This document shows positions 1 through 4,395 of a stretch of 4,395 bases of DNA, piece by piece; the first letter of the stretch is position 1; the number at the start of each line of letters is the position of its first letter. A program made the position numbers and the translations under genes. The stretch spans positions 1 to 4,395 of the IMG/VR virus record IMGVR_UViG_2778261572_000003; one strand, written 5' to 3'. This stretch comes from a virus (lineage: Duplodnaviria; Heunggongvirae; Uroviricota; Caudoviricetes). The notes below the pieces were generated by a model. That model was not told the origin of the DNA. It ran no database searches and saw only the letters and a list, made by a program, of their open reading frames with translations.

Positions 1-16
1 CCTCGTTGGTTAGCTA

Positions 17-235
17 TTAACGTGGGTATGTAATCATTCTGGCAATGCTTAATGCCGCTGCTTTTTCCAGCCTGGTGATATCCTGCTCCAGAGCGGACAG
101 ATTTTCAGCCTGCTTAGCCCTGGCTTCATTGGCCCATTTCAGATCCTGCGCTGCATTAATTTTCTGGCGCATCCACTCATAAAGTTCATCATCGGTATAG
201 TCTGGCGCGATGATGACGGGTTCTCGTTTCTGCAT
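17..235 (-). CDS. Hypothetical small early-left protein, 72 aa, predicted coiled-coil or helical
   Basis: Complete ORF with ATG at 233-235 and TAA at 17-19 on the minus strand. A consensus SD (AAGGAG, read from the complement of 241-246) sits 5 nt upstream of the ATG. The protein is charged and helical (DELYEWMRQKINAAQDLKWANEARAKQAENLSALEQDITRLEKAA). The opposite strand in the same register translates to implausible hydrophobic sequence with a stop. Confidence 0.7.
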   Translation of the reverse strand: MQKREPVIIAPDYTDDELYEWMRQKINAAQDLKWANEARAKQAENLSALEQDITRLEKAAALSIARMITYPR

Positions 236-246
236 GTCGGCTCCTT

Positions 247-274
247 GTGGTTAGCGTTGCCTGCTTTTAACCAC
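247..274. repeat. Inverted repeat GTGGTTA-N14-TAACCAC directly upstream of the SD of the 17..235 gene
   Basis: Arms at 247-253 and 268-274 are perfect reverse complements. The 14-nt spacer is long for a terminator hairpin and there is no U-run, so a protein-binding site or mRNA leader structure is more likely. Confidence 0.3.
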
Positions 275-306
275 GTCAGGCGAGGTGGTATCCTCTGAGG
301 GGTCTG

Positions 307-663
307 TTACTCGAGAGGAAATTGGTTATGGATACAATCAAGTTTTCTTGCCCAGAATGTGGTGGCGAAGTCTTTGACACATCCTTTAAGCCGCAGGGCT
401 CTGACAGTTTCGCGGGAGCCATCTGCAAAAATTGTGGTCACCTTGTAACTGAAGATTAGTCCTCGCAGTTCGATGACGAAATCGTTGACAATATCTTCGG
501 TGCACTCACCAGAGACTTTCTGAAATAAAGACGCATACCGCTTAGTTACCGCTCTGATAACTCTTACCTGTCCGGCAATGGCGCTGATGTCAATATAAAG
601 CGCCATTGCTGCTTCTTTGCCGATCCCGTGATGCCTTCCATTCTGATGTTTGACTTCGCCCAC
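307..663 (-). CDS. Hypothetical protein, 118 aa from GTG 661-663 (alternative ATG at 604-606 gives 99 aa); coding status uncertain
   Basis: Only long ORF in 300-800. GTG start is preceded by GAGG 8 nt upstream. It lies downstream of a candidate repressor-controlled leftward promoter at 746-774. Against it: 8 of its 10 Arg codons are rare (AGA/AGG/CGG/CGA), and its C-terminal third is exactly antisense, in codon register, to a zinc-ribbon ORF on the plus strand. The neighbouring 17..235 gene also uses rare Arg codons, so codon usage is not decisive. Confidence 0.4.
   Translation of the reverse strand: MGEVKHQNGRHHGIGKEAAMALYIDISAIAGQVRVIRAVTKRYASLFQKVSGECTEDIVNDFVIELRGLIFSYKVTTIFADGSRETVRALRLKGCVKDFATTFWARKLDCIHNQFPLE
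328..459 (+). CDS. Candidate small zinc-ribbon protein, 43 aa (MDTIKFSCPECGGEVFDTSFKPQGSDSFAGAICKNCGHLVTED), nested antisense in the 307..663 ORF
   Basis: ATG at 328 with GAGAGGAA (313-320) upstream, TAG at 457-459. Two CxxC knuckles (C8/C11 and C33/C36) are spaced as in a zinc ribbon. Codon choice is E. coli-like (GAA, GGT, GGC, CCG, CAG, ATC, AAA). No convincing sigma70 promoter was found in 236-327, and it lies inside a putative leftward operon, so it remains a candidate only. Confidence 0.3.
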   Translation: MDTIKFSCPECGGEVFDTSFKPQGSDSFAGAICKNCGHLVTED

Positions 664-745
664 TGAGAAATCCTCTGTTTCCCCTTAACGCCGGGGTGGC
701 GGAACTTTAGCCTGACAACGATGCGGTTCGTTGTTGATGGAATGA

Positions 746-797
746 ATGGTAAAACTATTGGTTTTATTGGTCAATAGGTAATGGAACATAAAGTTTT
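746..797 (-). promoter_or_regulatory. Putative repressor-controlled leftward (pL-like) promoter with two operator copies
   Basis: On the minus strand: -35 TTGACC (complement of 769-774), 17-nt spacer, -10 TACCAT (complement of 746-751). The spacer contains AAAACTATTGGTTTT (751-765), 14/15 identical to the operator at 1293-1307. A second, weaker AAC-N5-GTTTT site is at 785-797. Tandem TATTGGT repeats sit at 755-761 and 764-770. Confidence 0.45.
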
Positions 798-809
798 ATT
801 TGTGAGGAT

Positions 810-837
810 AAAAAAAGCGCCAAGGAGGCGCTTTTTT
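810..837. terminator. Bidirectional rho-independent terminator ending the repressor transcript
   Basis: A7 (810-816), stem GCGCC (817-821), loop AAGGA, stem GGCGC (827-831), T6 (832-837). It starts 9 nt beyond the repressor stop (846-848). The perfect symmetry makes it usable on both strands. Confidence 0.8.
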
Positions 838-845
838 CATGTAAC

Positions 846-1256
846 TTATTGTTTTTGAATATCATTGATTATGTCGTATACATCGTTTTTTAGAAGATCC
901 ATTTCATGAAGAATGCTTTTTGTGTGCATGATTAGTCTCAGCTTTTCCGTTTCTGGCAACTGATTAAAAAGGGACAATAGCGCCTTTTCTTTGTCGTCAA
1001 GCTGGATTAGTGGTGGTGCATCTTCTTCCTTTGAATGTTCATTTAGCGGCATAAAAAACCAATGTTCTGGTTTTCCTGTTACTGCGGCAAGTCTTTTTAA
1101 TCTTTCTCCGCTGGCAATGGTTTCTCCTGTTGCCCACTTACGCACAGCGGTATGGGACAGCATAACCTTTTTAGCCAGACCGGCTAACGACCAGCCATGT
1201 TCGCTCATTGCTTGCCGAACTCTCTCAGCAAATATTGGATGGTTTATTTTACTCAT
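846..1256 (-). CDS. Prophage repressor, XRE-family HTH, DicA/RacR-like short type without a peptidase S24 domain
   Basis: 136 aa. An HTH is visible at about residues 22-42 (SLAGLAKKVMLSHTAVRKWATGE). The C-terminal segment LLSLFNQLPETEKL resembles the DicA-type C-terminus as I recall it. It faces the Cro-like gene across an operator-rich intergenic region. There is no SD, and a TATACT -10 lies about 7 nt upstream of the ATG, consistent with a leaderless mRNA. Confidence 0.85.
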   Translation of the reverse strand: MSKINHPIFAERVRQAMSEHGWSLAGLAKKVMLSHTAVRKWATGETIASGERLKRLAAVTGKPEHWFFMPLNEHSKEEDAPPLIQLDDKEKALLSLFNQLPETEKLRLIMHTKSILHEMDLLKNDVYDIINDIQKQ

Positions 1257-1368
1257 TTTTTAAGTATACAACCAAAGGTTTCACCAATCAGCAAAACTAT
1301 AGGTTTTGTGTTGAAACTTATAGTTTTTGATGGTAGCGTAGGTGAAATTAATAGTACTGGTGGAAAGT
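1257..1368. promoter_or_regulatory. Divergent promoter/operator region (pRM-like leftward, pR-like rightward) with three related operator sites
   Basis: Operators of form AAAAC-N5-GTTTT: AAAACTATAGGTTTT (1293-1307), AAACTTATAGTTTTT (1314-1328), and a degenerate copy ACAACCAAAGGTTTC (1268-1282, 11/15). Centres are 21-25 bp apart. Rightward candidate: -35 TTGAAA (1311-1316), 17-bp spacer, extended -10 TGgTAGCGT (1331-1339). Leftward candidate: -10 TATACT (complement of 1263-1268) with a weak -35. Confidence 0.65.
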
Positions 1369-1644
1369 ATGAGTAATCAAATTCACGATAAGATCTCTAA
1401 AAAAATGTCGAAAACTGACATTGGCAAACACTTTGGCATTAGCTCCCAGGCCGTAGGCAAGTGGTTCATTAAAGGCAAGGTTCCTGCTGAACGCGTGTCG
1501 TCACTCTGTGCATTACTGAATTGGGAAATTACTCCCCACGAACTTCGCCCTGACATTTATCCCAACCCAACAGATGGACTACCTTGTGGAAATAAGTGTA
1601 TGTCGAATGAATCACTGGCGGTGAACAATGATATTCACTCCTGA
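1369..1644 (+). CDS. Cro-like / YdaS-family HTH protein, 91 aa from ATG 1369
   Basis: HTH (IGKHFGISSQAVGKWF) followed by the HELRPD motif I associate with the YdaS/Cro-like family. ATG 1369 is preceded by GGTGG (1359-1363). The ORF-track start at 1342 (GTG) lies upstream of the predicted transcription start, so 1369 is preferred. An ATG at 1405 is also possible but has no SD. Stop TGA at 1642-1644 overlaps the next gene. Confidence 0.75.
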   Translation: MSNQIHDKISKKMSKTDIGKHFGISSQAVGKWFIKGKVPAERVSSLCALLNWEITPHELRPDIYPNPTDGLPCGNKCMSNESLAVNNDIHS

Positions 1645-2149
1645 GCAGGCTCGCGAGGCTCTGGATGCCTGGGTATGCCGACCAGGAATGACGCAGGAGC
1701 AGGCGACGATATTAATCACGGAAGCATTCTGGGCTCTGAAAGAACGCCCGAACATCGATGTTCAACGCGTCACGTTTGATGATGGCGCGGTTGATCAACG
1801 GGCGCTGGGCGTTAACCGGGTGAAGATATTCGAACGCTGGAAAGCGATCGACACCAGGGATAAGCGGGAAAAATTCACGGCGTTGATTCCGGCAATCATG
1901 GAGGCTATCCGGATAAGTGATTTCAGGTTGTATTGTGAAATTACTGATGGAAAAAGCATTACGTACATGCTCGCCGGGTTAAATAAAGAATATGGCGATG
2001 TGGTGGAGTCCGGTCTGCTTTTGGCAGATCCCGCTGTTGTGGAGCGCGAGACTGACGAGCTTATAGAAAAAGCTATTGCTTTCAAGCATGCGTATCGTCA
2101 GCAATATCAACAAAAAGCCGGATGGAATTATGAGTCTTCTTTTTGCTGA
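1628..2149 (+). CDS. YdaT-family protein (CII-position regulator; annotated in databases as putative toxin YdaT), 173 aa
   Basis: Sits second in the rightward operon with a 17-nt overlap onto the Cro-like gene. The segment KIFERWKAIDTRDKREKFTALIPAIMEAI matches my recollection of the conserved YdaT core. The family call is from memory, not a search. Confidence 0.7.
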   Translation: MIFTPEQAREALDAWVCRPGMTQEQATILITEAFWALKERPNIDVQRVTFDDGAVDQRALGVNRVKIFERWKAIDTRDKREKFTALIPAIMEAIRISDFRLYCEITDGKSITYMLAGLNKEYGDVVESGLLLADPAVVERETDELIEKAIAFKHAYRQQYQQKAGWNYESSFC

Positions 2150-3095
2150 ACGCCCACTGGTTATTAACACGCAGCTGGCGATGAAAATTGGTCTGAACGA
2201 AGCCATCGTGTTGCAGCAGCTGCATTACTGGTTGAGAGATACCGGTTCCGGCATGGAATGTGATGGTGTTCGCTGGATTTATAATACAACAGAACAATGG
2301 CTGGAACAGTTCCCGTTCTGGTCAGAGTCAACGTTAAAACGCGCATTTGCAAGTCTGAAAGCGCTGGGGCTTTTGCGTTGCGAAAAGCTCAACAAATCAA
2401 AGCGTGACATGACTAATTTTTACACGATTAATTACGAGAGCGAGCTTTTAGATGGTGGCAAAGTGAGCGAATCCATCAGGTCAAAATGCGCCGCTCCATC
2501 AGGTCAAAATGACACGATGGAAGAGGCCAAAATGACACGCTCCATTGGTTCAAAACGACACAATGTCATCGGGTCAAAATGGCCTGATGATCTTACAGAG
2601 AATACAACAGAGATTACTACAGAGAATAAAAACACTTCTCGTCCGGAAGCTTCGCAACCGGACATGCAGACGGCTGAACAGGATTTTTTAAACCGACACC
2701 CTGACGCGGTTGTGTTCAGTGCGAAAAAACGCCAGTGGGGCAGCCAGGAAGATTTAGCGTGTGCGCAGTGGATCTGGGGACGAATCGTGAGTCTTTACGA
2801 GCAGGCTGCCAGCGATGATGGCGAAATCATGCGACCGAAAGAACCCAACTGGACTGCATGGGCCAATGATGTGCGCACAATGCGGATGCTGGATGGCAGA
2901 ACTCACAGACAAATTTGCGAAATGTTTGGTCGGGTACAGCGGGATCCATTCTGGGTAAAAAACGTCATGAGCCCGTCAAAGCTTCGCGAAAAATGGGATG
3001 AGCTGGTTATTCGTCTGGGGCGTTCACCTGTACAGCGTTGCGTGAATCACATTTCTGAACCGGACACCGAAATTCCGCCGGGATTCAGGGGGTAA
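2130..3095 (+). CDS. Replication initiation protein, lambda O-like / YdaU-position, 321 aa from ATG 2130
   Basis: The ORF opens at 2076, but 2130 is the first ATG that minimises overlap with the upstream gene, giving a 20-nt overlap. The N-terminal domain looks like a winged-helix DNA binder. The gene contains five 23-bp iterons and an adjacent AT-rich repeat block, as lambda ori sits within O. It is immediately followed by a DnaC-like loader. Confidence 0.8.
   Translation: MSLLFAERPLVINTQLAMKIGLNEAIVLQQLHYWLRDTGSGMECDGVRWIYNTTEQWLEQFPFWSESTLKRAFASLKALGLLRCEKLNKSKRDMTNFYTINYESELLDGGKVSESIRSKCAAPSGQNDTMEEAKMTRSIGSKRHNVIGSKWPDDLTENTTEITTENKNTSRPEASQPDMQTAEQDFLNRHPDAVVFSAKKRQWGSQEDLACAQWIWGRIVSLYEQAASDDGEIMRPKEPNWTAWANDVRTMRMLDGRTHRQICEMFGRVQRDPFWVKNVMSPSKLREKWDELVIRLGRSPVQRCVNHISEPDTEIPPGFRG
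2472..2584. repeat. Five direct iterons (23-bp period), putative prophage replication origin inside the initiator gene
   Basis: TCCATCAGGTCAAAATG occurs exactly at 2472-2488 and 2495-2511. Related copies have cores GGCCAAAATGACACG (2525-2539), GGTTCAAAACGACAC (2547-2561) and GGTCAAAATGG (2572-2582). Core starts are 2479, 2502, 2525, 2547/2548 and 2572. Confidence 0.8.
2594..2633. repeat. AT-rich block with three 12-bp tandem repeats (ACAGAGA core), candidate DNA-unwinding element next to the iterons
   Basis: The ACAGAGA core recurs at 2595-2601, 2607-2613 and 2619-2625 with a 12-bp period, in an AT-rich stretch immediately downstream of the iterons. It encodes the repetitive peptide LTENTTEITTENKN. 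Confidence 0.5.
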
Positions 3096-3101
3096 CGAAG
3101 C

Positions 3102-3848
3102 ATGAAAAATATTGCGACAGGCGGTGTTCTTGAACGCATCCGTAAGCTGGCTCCGCAGCATGTAACCGCGCCATACCGAACAGTGGACGAGTGGCGCGAG
3201 TGGCAACTTGCAGAAGGCCAGAAGCGTTGCGAGGAGATCAACCGCCAGAATCGTCAGTTGCGGGTGGAAAAAATTCTGAATCGCTCCGGCATCCAGCCGT
3301 TGCACCGCAAGTGCTCGTTTGCGAATTACCAGGTGCAGAATGACGGCCAGCGATACGCGTTGAGCCAGGCGAAATCCATCGCCGATGAACTGATGACCGG
3401 ATGCACAAATTTCGCATTCAGCGGAAAACCTGGTACCGGGAAAAACCACTTAGCGGCGGCTATCGGAAATCGCCTGCTGAAAGATGGCCAGACAGTGATT
3501 GTGGTTACCGTGGCTGATGTTATGAGTGCTCTACACGCCAGCTATGACGACGGGCAATCAGGCGAAAAATTTTTGCGGGAACTGTGCGAAGTGGATCTGC
3601 TGATTCTTGATGAAATTGGCATTCAGCGCGAGACGAAAAACGAGCAGGTGGTACTGCACCAGATTGTTGATCGCCGGACAGCGTCGATGCGCAGCGTGGG
3701 AATGCTGACAAACCTGAACTATGAGGCCATGAAAACGCTGCTCGGCGAGCGGATTATGGATCGCATGACCATGAACGGCGGGCGATGGGTGAGTTTTAAC
3801 TGGGAGAGCTGGCGTTCAAATGTCGGCTATTTGAGGGTTGTTAAGTAA
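3102..3848 (+). CDS. DnaC-family replicative helicase loader (AAA+ ATPase), prophage copy, 248 aa
   Basis: Walker A GKPGTGKN at 3423-3446 and Walker B DLLILDEIG. Similarity to host DnaC, as I recall its sequence, runs along the whole length (MKN..., NRSGIQPLH, CSFANY, FSGKPGTGKNHLAAAI, VDRR, GMLTN, LLGERIMDRM, FNW). SD GGGGG at 3087-3091. Start is 7 nt after the initiator stop. Confidence 0.93.
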   Translation: MKNIATGGVLERIRKLAPQHVTAPYRTVDEWREWQLAEGQKRCEEINRQNRQLRVEKILNRSGIQPLHRKCSFANYQVQNDGQRYALSQAKSIADELMTGCTNFAFSGKPGTGKNHLAAAIGNRLLKDGQTVIVVTVADVMSALHASYDDGQSGEKFLRELCEVDLLILDEIGIQRETKNEQVVLHQIVDRRTASMRSVGMLTNLNYEAMKTLLGERIMDRMTMNGGRWVSFNWESWRSNVGYLRVVK

Positions 3849-3862
3849 TTTCATGAGGGCTT

Positions 3863-4258
3863 ATGGCAAAACCTTTTACACCCGAACAGCGGGAAGAGCT
3901 GAAGGCACGAATTATCGGGTTGGTACGCAAAAATGGACGCATGACGATGTCGCAACTGGAGAGAGCGACGGGAGCTGGCTGGCATTCGGTCCGACGCTGC
4001 CTTGTGGATGTACTGGCTTGTGGTGATTTATACATGTCCGGGGAATACGGTGTTTTTGCATCAGAGCAGGCGTATCGTGAATGGCGTAAGACACCGGAGA
4101 AAACAACTGACCAGACACTGATTCGAAAGTTACCAGACGGAGAAATACGCCGCTACGACAGACACCTGAACATAATTTGCCGTGAGTGCCGGAAGAGTGA
4201 AGTTATGCAGCGAGTGCTGGCGTTCTATCAGGGAGATTTTCAGGAGGTGATGGAGTGA
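3863..4258 (+). CDS. Hypothetical protein, 131 aa, with a possible N-terminal winged-helix-like segment
   Basis: ATG 3863 with AGGG 4 nt upstream. Same strand and tight spacing after the DnaC-like gene. Residues 10-55 (ELKARIIGLVRKNGRMTMSQLERATGAGWHSVRRCLVDVL) look like a wHTH. One CxxC at the C-terminus. No family recognised. Confidence 0.65.
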   Translation: MAKPFTPEQREELKARIIGLVRKNGRMTMSQLERATGAGWHSVRRCLVDVLACGDLYMSGEYGVFASEQAYREWRKTPEKTTDQTLIRKLPDGEIRRYDRHLNIICRECRKSEVMQRVLAFYQGDFQEVME

Positions 4259-4395
4259 GGGTGAGGGTTTATATCGCCGGTCCGATGACCGGGTATAAAA
4301 ATTTCAACCGTGAGGCGTTCCACAAGGCGGAAGAGGAACCGAAACGGGAAGGGCATACAGTCTTAAACCCGGCAGTACTTCCGGACGGACTGACA
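4255..4395 (+). CDS. DUF4406-like (nucleoside 2-deoxyribosyltransferase-like) protein, N-terminal fragment; 3' end beyond window
   Basis: GTG 4255 overlaps the upstream TGA (GTGA at 4255-4258), with AGGAGG at 4242-4247. Translation VRVRVYIAGPMTGYKNFNREAFHKAEEEPKREGHTVLNP matches the YIAGPMTG...NF...F...G..V.NP N-terminal signature I associate with DUF4406. The frame stays open to the window end. The ORF track misses it because no stop is present. Confidence 0.55.
   Translation, partial: MRVRVYIAGPMTGYKNFNREAFHKAEEEPKREGHTVLNPAVLPDGLT

Follow-up and report, generated by a model that had tools for sequence, protein, structure and literature searches.

The DNA analysed here (the window) comprises positions 1 to 4,395 of the IMG/VR virus record IMGVR_UViG_2778261572_000003 (Caudoviricetes), 4,395 nucleotides (nt) in all, and is the immunity and early region of a lambdoid, Qin-like Escherichia coli prophage. 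At positions 307-663, between ydfC and a terminator-like hairpin, two open reading frames (ORFs) occupy the same bases on opposite strands: a rightward (plus-strand) ORF for a small putative zinc-ribbon protein of the ECs_2282 family, and a leftward (minus-strand) ORF that contains the whole plus ORF in antisense. A prior reading made without database searches (the sequence-only reading) had proposed three possibilities for this locus, namely a genuine embedded zinc-ribbon gene, a decayed plus-strand gene, or a real minus gene carrying a chance antisense motif. The features concerned are as follows.

258..294, plus strand: conserved element GCCTGCTTTTAACCACGTCAGGCGAGGTGGTATCCTC, with hairpin ACCAC..GTGGT and promoter-like TTAACC-16-TGgTATCCT
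291..319, plus strand: inverted repeat TCCTCT...AGAGGA, in which a -10-like box is paired with the ribosome-binding site
313..320, plus strand: ribosome-binding site of the plus ORF, GAGAGGAA, 7 nt ahead of the ATG
328..459, plus strand: truncated zinc-ribbon coding sequence (CDS) of the ECs_2282 family, 43 amino acids (aa), both CxxC knuckles kept, ending at TAG 457-459
328..528, plus strand: full-length family frame, 66 codons, ending at TAA 526-528; broken here by G457T (E44*)
307..606, minus strand: early-operon CDS of PHROG 21318, 99 aa, ATG at 604-606 and stop at 307-309
607..663, minus strand: possible N-terminal extension, giving 118 aa from GTG 661-663, with an AGAGGA ribosome-binding site 7 nt upstream
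746..774, minus strand: candidate pL-like sigma-70 promoter, TTGACC-17-TACCAT, directed into the minus ORF

Two frames nested in antisense and open across five genera

The plus ORF starts with ATG at 328, continues with MDTIKFSCPECGGEVFDTSFKPQGSDSFAGAICKNCGHLVTED and carries the knuckles CPEC and CKNC; its frame meets TAG at 457-459, TAA at 526-528 and TGA at 664-666. The two ORFs are codon-for-codon antisense, with plus position 1 opposite minus position 3 and position 2 opposite position 2. The sequence-only reading had described a 43-aa plus ORF at 328-459 with two CxxC pairs, a ribosome-binding site and host-like codons, the same three plus-frame stops, and a 118-aa minus ORF at 307-663; all of these are in the sequence at the positions given, and the phase of the two frames confirms its codon-for-codon nesting.

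Conservation was assessed on the DNA of 13 divergent lineages from Escherichia, Citrobacter, Klebsiella, Enterobacter and Serratia. When all six frames were tested over this set, only the plus and minus pair stayed open. The sole plus-frame break is the TAG of the window itself, while the minus frame, the only one open in 13/13 lineages, stops nowhere except at its own terminator, which always lies just past the plus start and never inside the plus ORF. Indels are exclusively multiples of three, and none breaks a frame. Exceptions to this picture are L101, which has a frameshift in the minus N-terminus, and the L233 allele, in which both frames are broken. The plus ORF of L101 is intact, and a host molybdopterin oxidoreductase gene adjoins the locus there. 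The homologue search advocated by the sequence-only reading returned relatives for both translations, reaching down to about 50-60% identity in five genera, and two frames open over this range exceed what chance would give.

The plus-strand ORF is a truncated member of a curated zinc-ribbon family

The 43-aa product matches NCBIfam NF047912 ("ECs_2282 family putative zinc-binding protein", ECs_2282_CxxC) with 47.5 bits (E=1.2e-12), the curated cut-off being 37 bits. Because translation would stop at codon 44, the match is limited to profile positions 1-40 of 60 and the window copy is a truncated member, lacking the full-length product of about 60-66 aa with its acidic C-terminal region. Cysteines C8/C11 and C33/C36 are present in the window and in every full-length homologue, and together form a putative zinc ribbon. 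In the full-length protein this N-terminal four-cysteine ribbon is followed by a strongly acidic tail (12 acidic and 5 basic residues).

Relatives of the plus protein were found down to 48-64% identity in Citrobacter, Klebsiella, Enterobacter and Serratia. An intact plus ORF of 62-67 aa is present in all divergent lineages examined, and its ATG, ribosome-binding site, four cysteines and stop position are kept across them; the AGGA-type motif of the ribosome-binding site, at a spacing of 6-9 nt, is retained in all lineages, even where the site falls outside the minus ORF. The N-terminus also resembles phrog_4852, a separate phage family of 194 aa (E=1.4e-9). Searches of Pfam, NCBIfam, PHROGs and PADLOC otherwise gave generic zinc-ribbon or unknown-function matches only. 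A PADLOC match to PDC-M14A (E=0.0014) was too weak and was not used. A scan of GTDB species representatives recovered only unrelated zinc ribbons from distant metagenome-assembled genomes (L003-L005), and tblastn against phage GenBank returned only near-identical E. coli phages. AlphaFold2 modelled the plus protein poorly, with a predicted local distance difference test score (pLDDT) of 58.

The minus-strand ORF is a conserved early gene

Residues 1-99 of the minus product align to profile positions 1-99 of 99 of phrog_21318 (E=7.3e-66), and in relatives the ORF is annotated as the hypothetical protein WP_001240336.1. Its relatives extend down to about 57-60% identity, and the family is tiny, with eight clusters at the 50% level in an exhaustive profile search; the DNA of its most divergent members, P0043 and P0044, was not found. 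The start codon and a GGAG-type ribosome-binding site are kept at the same place. The 607-663 extension is poorly conserved and confined to E. coli-type lineages, in which a start codon is maintained at the 661-663 position (GTG, ATG, GTG); other genera start near 606-612. AlphaFold2 predicts a compact helix-helix-strand-strand-helix fold (pLDDT 69.5), with the highest confidence in the part encoded by the overlap. An assignment as an N-like antiterminator was considered and rejected, as the protein is without an arginine-rich N-terminus and has no family match.

Eight of the nine minus arginine codons are rare in E. coli (AGA x4, CGG x2, AGG, CGA). The sequence-only reading had noted this rarity correctly and taken it as the signature of a shadow ORF; that conclusion does not follow, because four of the rare codons lie outside the overlap, which points to phage-gene composition rather than shadow status, and the non-overlap part evolves as minus-strand coding sequence (see below).

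The candidate promoter at 746-774 is placed between the repressor terminator and the minus ORF and has 9/12 consensus matches in a consensus scan; promoter-like matches in the region are not in excess, with 2 found and 2.1 expected from shuffled sequence. Homology with prophages of other immunity types stops at about 705-743. Since the candidate, read from 774 to 746, aims into the minus ORF, the latter would be the first gene of a repressor-controlled leftward operon, which in close relatives runs from the minus ORF through ydfC on to dicB. The minus ORF accompanies the early operon in every context, either as the first pL-side gene or directly after cro (L086, L087), and the zinc-ribbon ORF is antisense to the early operon in every lineage context. 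The latter two loci (L086 3001-3285 and L087 3001-3285) belong to prophages of Citrobacter amalonaticus and Klebsiella variicola. There the whole pair is found across the immunity region from its place in the window, in the rightward (pR) operon immediately behind cro; the conserved upstream element is absent, and the relative orientation of the two ORFs is unchanged.

Selection acts differently inside and outside the overlap

Selection tests cover 60-65 codons in the overlap and, where the minus ORF lies outside it, 24 aligned codons (about 532-603). Changes by codon position were inferred by parsimony on a neighbour-joining tree, with 12 neighbouring phage genes as controls, in all of which the ratio of third- to first-position changes is at least 1.08.

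Within the overlap, pairwise differences at plus codon positions 1, 2 and 3 number 460 : 195 : 611, and Nei-Gojobori pairwise ratios of nonsynonymous to synonymous rates (dN/dS) are 0.05-0.35 in the plus and 0.35-1.7 in the minus frame. Inferred changes at minus positions 1/2/3 are 115/29/80, the first position exceeding the third (p=0.015). Because the minus first position thus evolves faster than the third, unlike in 12/12 controls, the reading in which the minus frame alone codes is rejected for this segment. We also calculated OLGenie-type ratios, in which the first letter refers to the plus and the second to the minus frame (N, nonsynonymous; S, synonymous). The dNN/dSN ratio is 0.18-0.22 (bootstrap confidence interval below 0.35), so that minus-altering changes which leave the plus protein untouched are about five times as common as those altering both proteins. 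Control genes have a median of 0.79, with values this low in about 3% of their 65-codon windows; given this null median of about 0.79 and the wide spread at 65 codons, the ratio was down-weighted. On these substitution patterns, the stronger purifying selection in the overlap lies on the plus frame.

Outside the overlap the pattern is that of a minus-strand gene. Changes at minus positions 1/2/3 are 42/40/79 (p=1e-4 versus equal rates), dN/dS for pairs of Klebsiella, Citrobacter and Enterobacter sequences is 0.09-0.39 in the minus frame versus 0.8-2.2 in the plus-phase frame, and the segment has neither stops nor frame-breaking indels. The region-by-phase interaction is significant (p=2e-6), and the minus third-position rate is 2.5-fold lower inside than outside the overlap (p=2e-7), the expected mark of a second coding layer.

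A further line of evidence comes from codons of the plus ORF that would stop the minus frame. None of the 42 leucine codons is TTA or CTA and only 2 of the 87 serine codons are TCA, against a background of 19-20% in each case; both TCA codons occur in L086 and L087, where they form the stop codon of the minus gene itself. Nine third-base changes were inferred at the relevant plus codons, none of them to A. From codon usage alone, an open antisense frame would arise by chance with a probability of 0.04-0.27 per lineage, and the plus-frame dS between clades is about 0.6-1.7. By codon choice over the 13 lineages, each frame avoids the codons that would stop the other. The minus dNN/dNS ratio in the overlap is 0.33-0.43 (bootstrap confidence interval below 1), and 8-10% of 65-codon control windows are equally low; evidence from the alignments for minus-frame selection inside the overlap is moderate but consistent. 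Taken together, the alignments show the minus frame to be under purifying selection where it stands alone and to be kept open where the segment is shared.

Nonsense alleles, distribution and annotation

The truncating change G457T converts GAG to TAG (E44*) in the plus frame and CTC to CTA, a silent leucine change, in the minus frame. E44* retains the zinc ribbon and removes the acidic C-terminal tail, and the window allele may be inactive. The RefSeq annotation of strain TUM1881 (98.6% identical) has a 66-aa CDS matching 328-528; the identical 43-aa allele is catalogued in RefSeq as WP_414651349.1 (strain tcmA_3) and occurs on 51 contigs. O157-type copies carry another nonsense allele of independent origin, G367T (E14*), which changes one minus residue, Phe to Leu; RefSeq annotates the minus 99-aa ORF instead in these copies. 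The L233 allele occurs in E. coli E2855 (NZ_AP018796.1, 1423300-1423601) and represents O111-type copies.

The region is present in 937/5426 complete E. coli genomes, and its E. coli copies number 1403. Each gene is catalogued already, the plus gene in NCBIfam and RefSeq and the minus gene in PHROGs and RefSeq. The RefSeq label falls on either the plus or the minus gene, and never on both in the loci inspected in detail. No paper mentioning ECs_2282 was found, the locus is not named in the main text of the overlapping-gene papers on enterohaemorrhagic E. coli, and a literature search found no description of the pair as dual coding.

A conserved upstream element places the plus gene in the sieB slot

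Unrelated phages share the 37-nt stretch at 258-294 with 100% identity, and the element occurs on at least 120 IMG/VR contigs. Further copies lie at L113 1501-1571, at L091 2221-2253 and 3028-3064, in lambda (J02459) at 34395-34461 (match 34409-34430), and in P22 (AF527608) at about 29654-29683. In lambda and P22 the element is located just upstream of sieB, and in P22 the annotated P sieB follows it directly; L091 has its two copies in tandem, one before sieB and one before the zinc-ribbon ORF. In different prophages, the element is followed at +27 to +37 by the ATG of at least nine unrelated plus-strand ORFs of 65-106 aa.

The inverted repeat at 291-319 forms a perfect stem of at least 6 bp in 20/20 distinct cassette variants, with a chance rate of 0.245 per variant. 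Its distal stem covaries between cassettes, and TCCT pairs with the AGGA of each ribosome-binding site. Rfam gave no match at the nested-pair locus or for the element. Because this hairpin needs both of its arms in one RNA, and because the P22 P sieB lies downstream of the element, the reading of 258-294 as a simple promoter is contradicted; the element may be a promoter, an mRNA leader or a sas-like structure in the leftward transcript. From its distribution it looks like a cassette hotspot or a portable control region.

The lambda SieB ORF (34482-35036; PF14163, E=1e-29) is convergent on N and abuts it. The plus ORF of the window has no match to the SieB domain (PF14163), and the shared element and position make the zinc-ribbon gene a cargo gene in the sieB slot rather than a member of the SieB family. 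From this position one might guess at an exclusion or anti-restriction-type binder made in the lysogen. The overlap between the first pL gene and the cargo is only 30-170 nt in other cassettes, whereas here it is complete and conserved.

Two other cassettes were inspected. In Escherichia phage HannyBb (PP925841.1; L113 1572-1892, plus), the element is followed by an unannotated 106-aa ORF whose hydrophobic stretches suggest a membrane protein and which recurs in about 48 IMG/VR loci. The ORF is enclosed, in antisense, by a hypothetical CDS annotated at 205 aa, the C-terminal half of which looks like shadow sequence. In L134, a different 67-aa zinc ribbon (CPKC...CRC; 381-584, plus) follows the element, and a convergent 127-aa protein with CxxC pairs of its own (417-800, minus) overlaps it by about 168 nt. 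The L134 pair may be a second extensive antisense overlap in the sieB slot.

The remainder of the window

Around the nested pair, the window has the following features.

17-235, minus strand: ydfC
about 810-838: terminator-like hairpin
846-1256, minus strand: DicA-like repressor
1369-1644: YdaS/Cro-like gene
1628-2149: YdaT-like gene
2130-3095: replication-initiator-like gene
3102-3848: DnaC-like loader

The hairpin (GCGCC-AAGGA-GGCGC), flanked by an A-run and a T-run directly past the repressor gene, looks from its sequence like a bidirectional intrinsic terminator between the repressor and the leftward promoter; its sole Rfam match, STnc420, is weak (E=0.45). The cro and cII positions (1369-2149) are held by YdaS-like (PF15943) and YdaT-like (PF06254) genes and not by classical Cro and CII, an arrangement as in the Rac prophage. 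Past the DnaC-like gene, a 131-aa ORF at 3863-4258 has no NCBIfam match; TUM1881 has a DUF1627 protein in its place, which marks a mosaic boundary.

Weighing the explanations

We consider it likely that the locus is a true nested antisense gene pair whose plus copy is truncated in the window. Segment 328-528 would then code on both strands. On the minus strand, it would provide the C-terminal two-thirds of a 99-118-aa protein, the product of the first repressor-controlled early-left gene; on the plus strand, it would be an accessory gene that fills the sieB slot and reads rightward towards the first pL gene, with the convergence being total here. The zinc-ribbon gene would be active in the lysogen, when the early operon is under repression, and production of the minus protein would be confined to the lytic or early programme. 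After induction or infection, leftward transcription may silence or modulate the zinc-ribbon gene in antisense, by analogy with the sas RNA of P22 sieB.

Several points weigh against this explanation. We infer transcription, translation and the split between lysogen and lytic programme for both strands. The alignments are shallow, with 13 lineages whose shared ancestry means that the per-lineage probabilities are not independent, and both structure models are of low to moderate confidence. The minus dNN/dNS of 0.33-0.43 is only moderate, and the control gene YfdP also reaches 0.43. The plus gene appears dispensable in some prophages, being stopped by E44* here and by E14* in O157-type copies (about 20/95 IMG/VR loci), and the third allele, L233, breaks both frames with two 1-nt insertions near window positions 437 and 446. 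Finally, the -10-like box and the ribosome-binding-site hairpin are incompatible in one short mRNA, and a promoter scan gave no convincing promoter for the plus gene.

The most serious competitor, which we judge unlikely, is that the plus gene alone is functional in the shared segment and that the C-terminal 66-70 residues of the minus protein are an unselected run-on. The plus frame is indeed under the stronger constraint in the overlap, where its ratios of first- to second-position changes (2.4-2.8) and of third- to first-position changes (1.3-1.4) are within the range of single-coding controls, and the minus dNN/dNS does not pass the 5% tail of the controls. The curated RefSeq family is the plus one, and the other cassettes of the slot, with their overlaps of 30-170 nt and the shadow-like 205-aa antisense ORF of HannyBb, would also fit. 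A mere run-on would nevertheless have had to stay open over all 62-66 shared codons in every lineage despite a plus dS of about 0.6-1.7, with a chance of 0.04-0.27 per lineage and with 2/129 stop-making synonymous codons where about 25 are expected, and to terminate always just past the plus start and never within the plus ORF. It would also leave a functional protein of about 26 residues, unusual given the conserved length of 93-118 aa, whereas in the AlphaFold2 model the hairpin and helix encoded by the overlap are predicted to pack against the N-terminal helices.

The converse, that only the minus early gene is real and that the plus CxxC pairs are an antisense by-product of Thr/Ala codons, the plus family being mis-catalogued, is very improbable. 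In its favour, long shadow ORFs arise most readily in the codon-for-codon antisense frame. The minus ORF is moreover intact in 96/96 close copies where the plus ORF has two independent nonsense alleles, it accompanies the operon in both genomic contexts, and the plus model is poor (pLDDT 58). Against it stand the minus codon positions in the overlap, with the third below the first (80 vs 115) and a synonymous rate reduced 2.5-fold as in no control, and a dNN/dSN of 0.18-0.22 against the control median of 0.79. Neither the retention of the plus start and ribosome-binding site outside the minus ORF, nor the element placed at the same spacing ahead of nine unrelated plus-strand ORFs, nor the independent similarity to phrog_4852 would be expected of a by-product. 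That conservation acts at the nucleic-acid level, on an antisense-RNA target or structured RNA of a sieB/sas-like switch to which both ORFs are secondary, is in our view extremely improbable. The upstream element clearly belongs to the RNA or DNA level, as does the covarying hairpin, and the corresponding region of P22 is under the cis-antisense sas RNA (PMC12197685); RNA structure would not, however, yield substitutions with a strict period of three bases whose phase switches precisely at the stop codon of the plus frame, indels in multiples of three only, or two open frames out of six, and there is no Rfam match.

Of the three possibilities raised by the sequence-only reading, the genuine embedded zinc-ribbon gene is best supported. 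Decay is partly true of the window copy, with its TAG at codon 44; relatives read through to TAA 526-528 and encode 66 aa. A real minus gene with a chance antisense motif is rejected on the excess of first- over third-position changes (115 vs 80), unlike in the 12 controls. That reading had also looked to the cysteine codons, which proved to be conserved in every full-length homologue, and to third-position changes as the means of exposing one ORF or the other as an artefact; these follow the plus frame in the overlap and the minus frame outside it. Its suggestion that the zinc-ribbon gene is undescribed does not stand, the gene being covered by NF047912 and annotated in RefSeq.

Starting from the nested gene pair, a more far-reaching proposal can be made, which we regard as possible although doubtful. 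The 201-bp segment would be a long-kept dual-coding module giving a zinc-ribbon product in the lysogen, under sieB-type control, and the antisense product only when pL/pR fires, so that the choice of strand would amount to a toggle between lysogeny and lytic growth; the two proteins may even be functionally coupled. The module would be one cassette of an undescribed exchange hotspot, in which the conserved element and its covarying ribosome-binding-site hairpin drive many unrelated small genes.

Comparison with known systems

Bacteria and phages offer few fully nested antisense coding pairs, and these are disputed, in part because most candidates are young and restricted to a single genus. The embedded ORFs of E. 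coli O157:H7 (for example oloz0137/yadF) reach full length in Escherichia/Shigella alone, whereas the mother genes have a much wider distribution (PMC9927249). The present locus shares with these pairs, and with those of Pseudomonas aeruginosa (PMC8850804), an ORF embedded antisense in another ORF, a case argued from conservation and selection in both frames, and annotation pipelines that keep one ORF. It differs from the O157:H7 pairs in that both partners have the same narrow prophage distribution and are open across at least five genera, and from both sets in that the embedded gene is the more constrained partner, has a recognisable fold and is known here from sequence alone.

The closest parallels in position are sieB and gene N of lambda and, in P22, sieB-esc and gene 24 together with sas. 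In each, the leftward pL operon harbours an accessory gene that runs rightward and converges with the first pL gene, with the conserved element upstream of it. In P22, translation of sieB is switched by the cis-antisense sas RNA (reviewed in PMC12197685). The differences are equally clear: the lambda and P22 sieB product is a membrane protein, whereas the product here is a predicted 66-aa soluble zinc ribbon without a SieB domain; lambda sieB and N abut without overlap, whereas the plus gene here is fully nested in the minus gene; and the promoter spacer of the P22 type is missing, the element being only about 33 nt from the ATG.

As for the proteins, RefSeq uses the NF047912 name for the exact allele of the window, and the annotation is silent on the antisense gene; the family itself is uncharacterised and named after a locus tag. 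Restriction-alleviation proteins of the Lar/Ral type in lambdoid prophages are likewise small and early-left encoded, and Lar is also a zinc ribbon. The similarity to Lar is a lead only, since TIGR03655 gives 15 bits against a cut-off of 39.6 (E=0.023) and a "Lar-like" PHROG E=0.0085. The locus is best classed with the antisense overlapping gene pairs, among which it is unusually well conserved, and is located in the lambdoid sieB slot.

Because natural one-strand knock-outs exist, with G457T and G367T each stopping the plus frame, the locus lends itself well to testing dual coding. Annotation has a blind spot here as well, since in the records examined RefSeq picks the gene of one strand. Beyond this pair, the conserved element points to a sieB-slot hotspot of small, probably lysogen-expressed genes, the kind of location in which exclusion and anti-defence functions are found.

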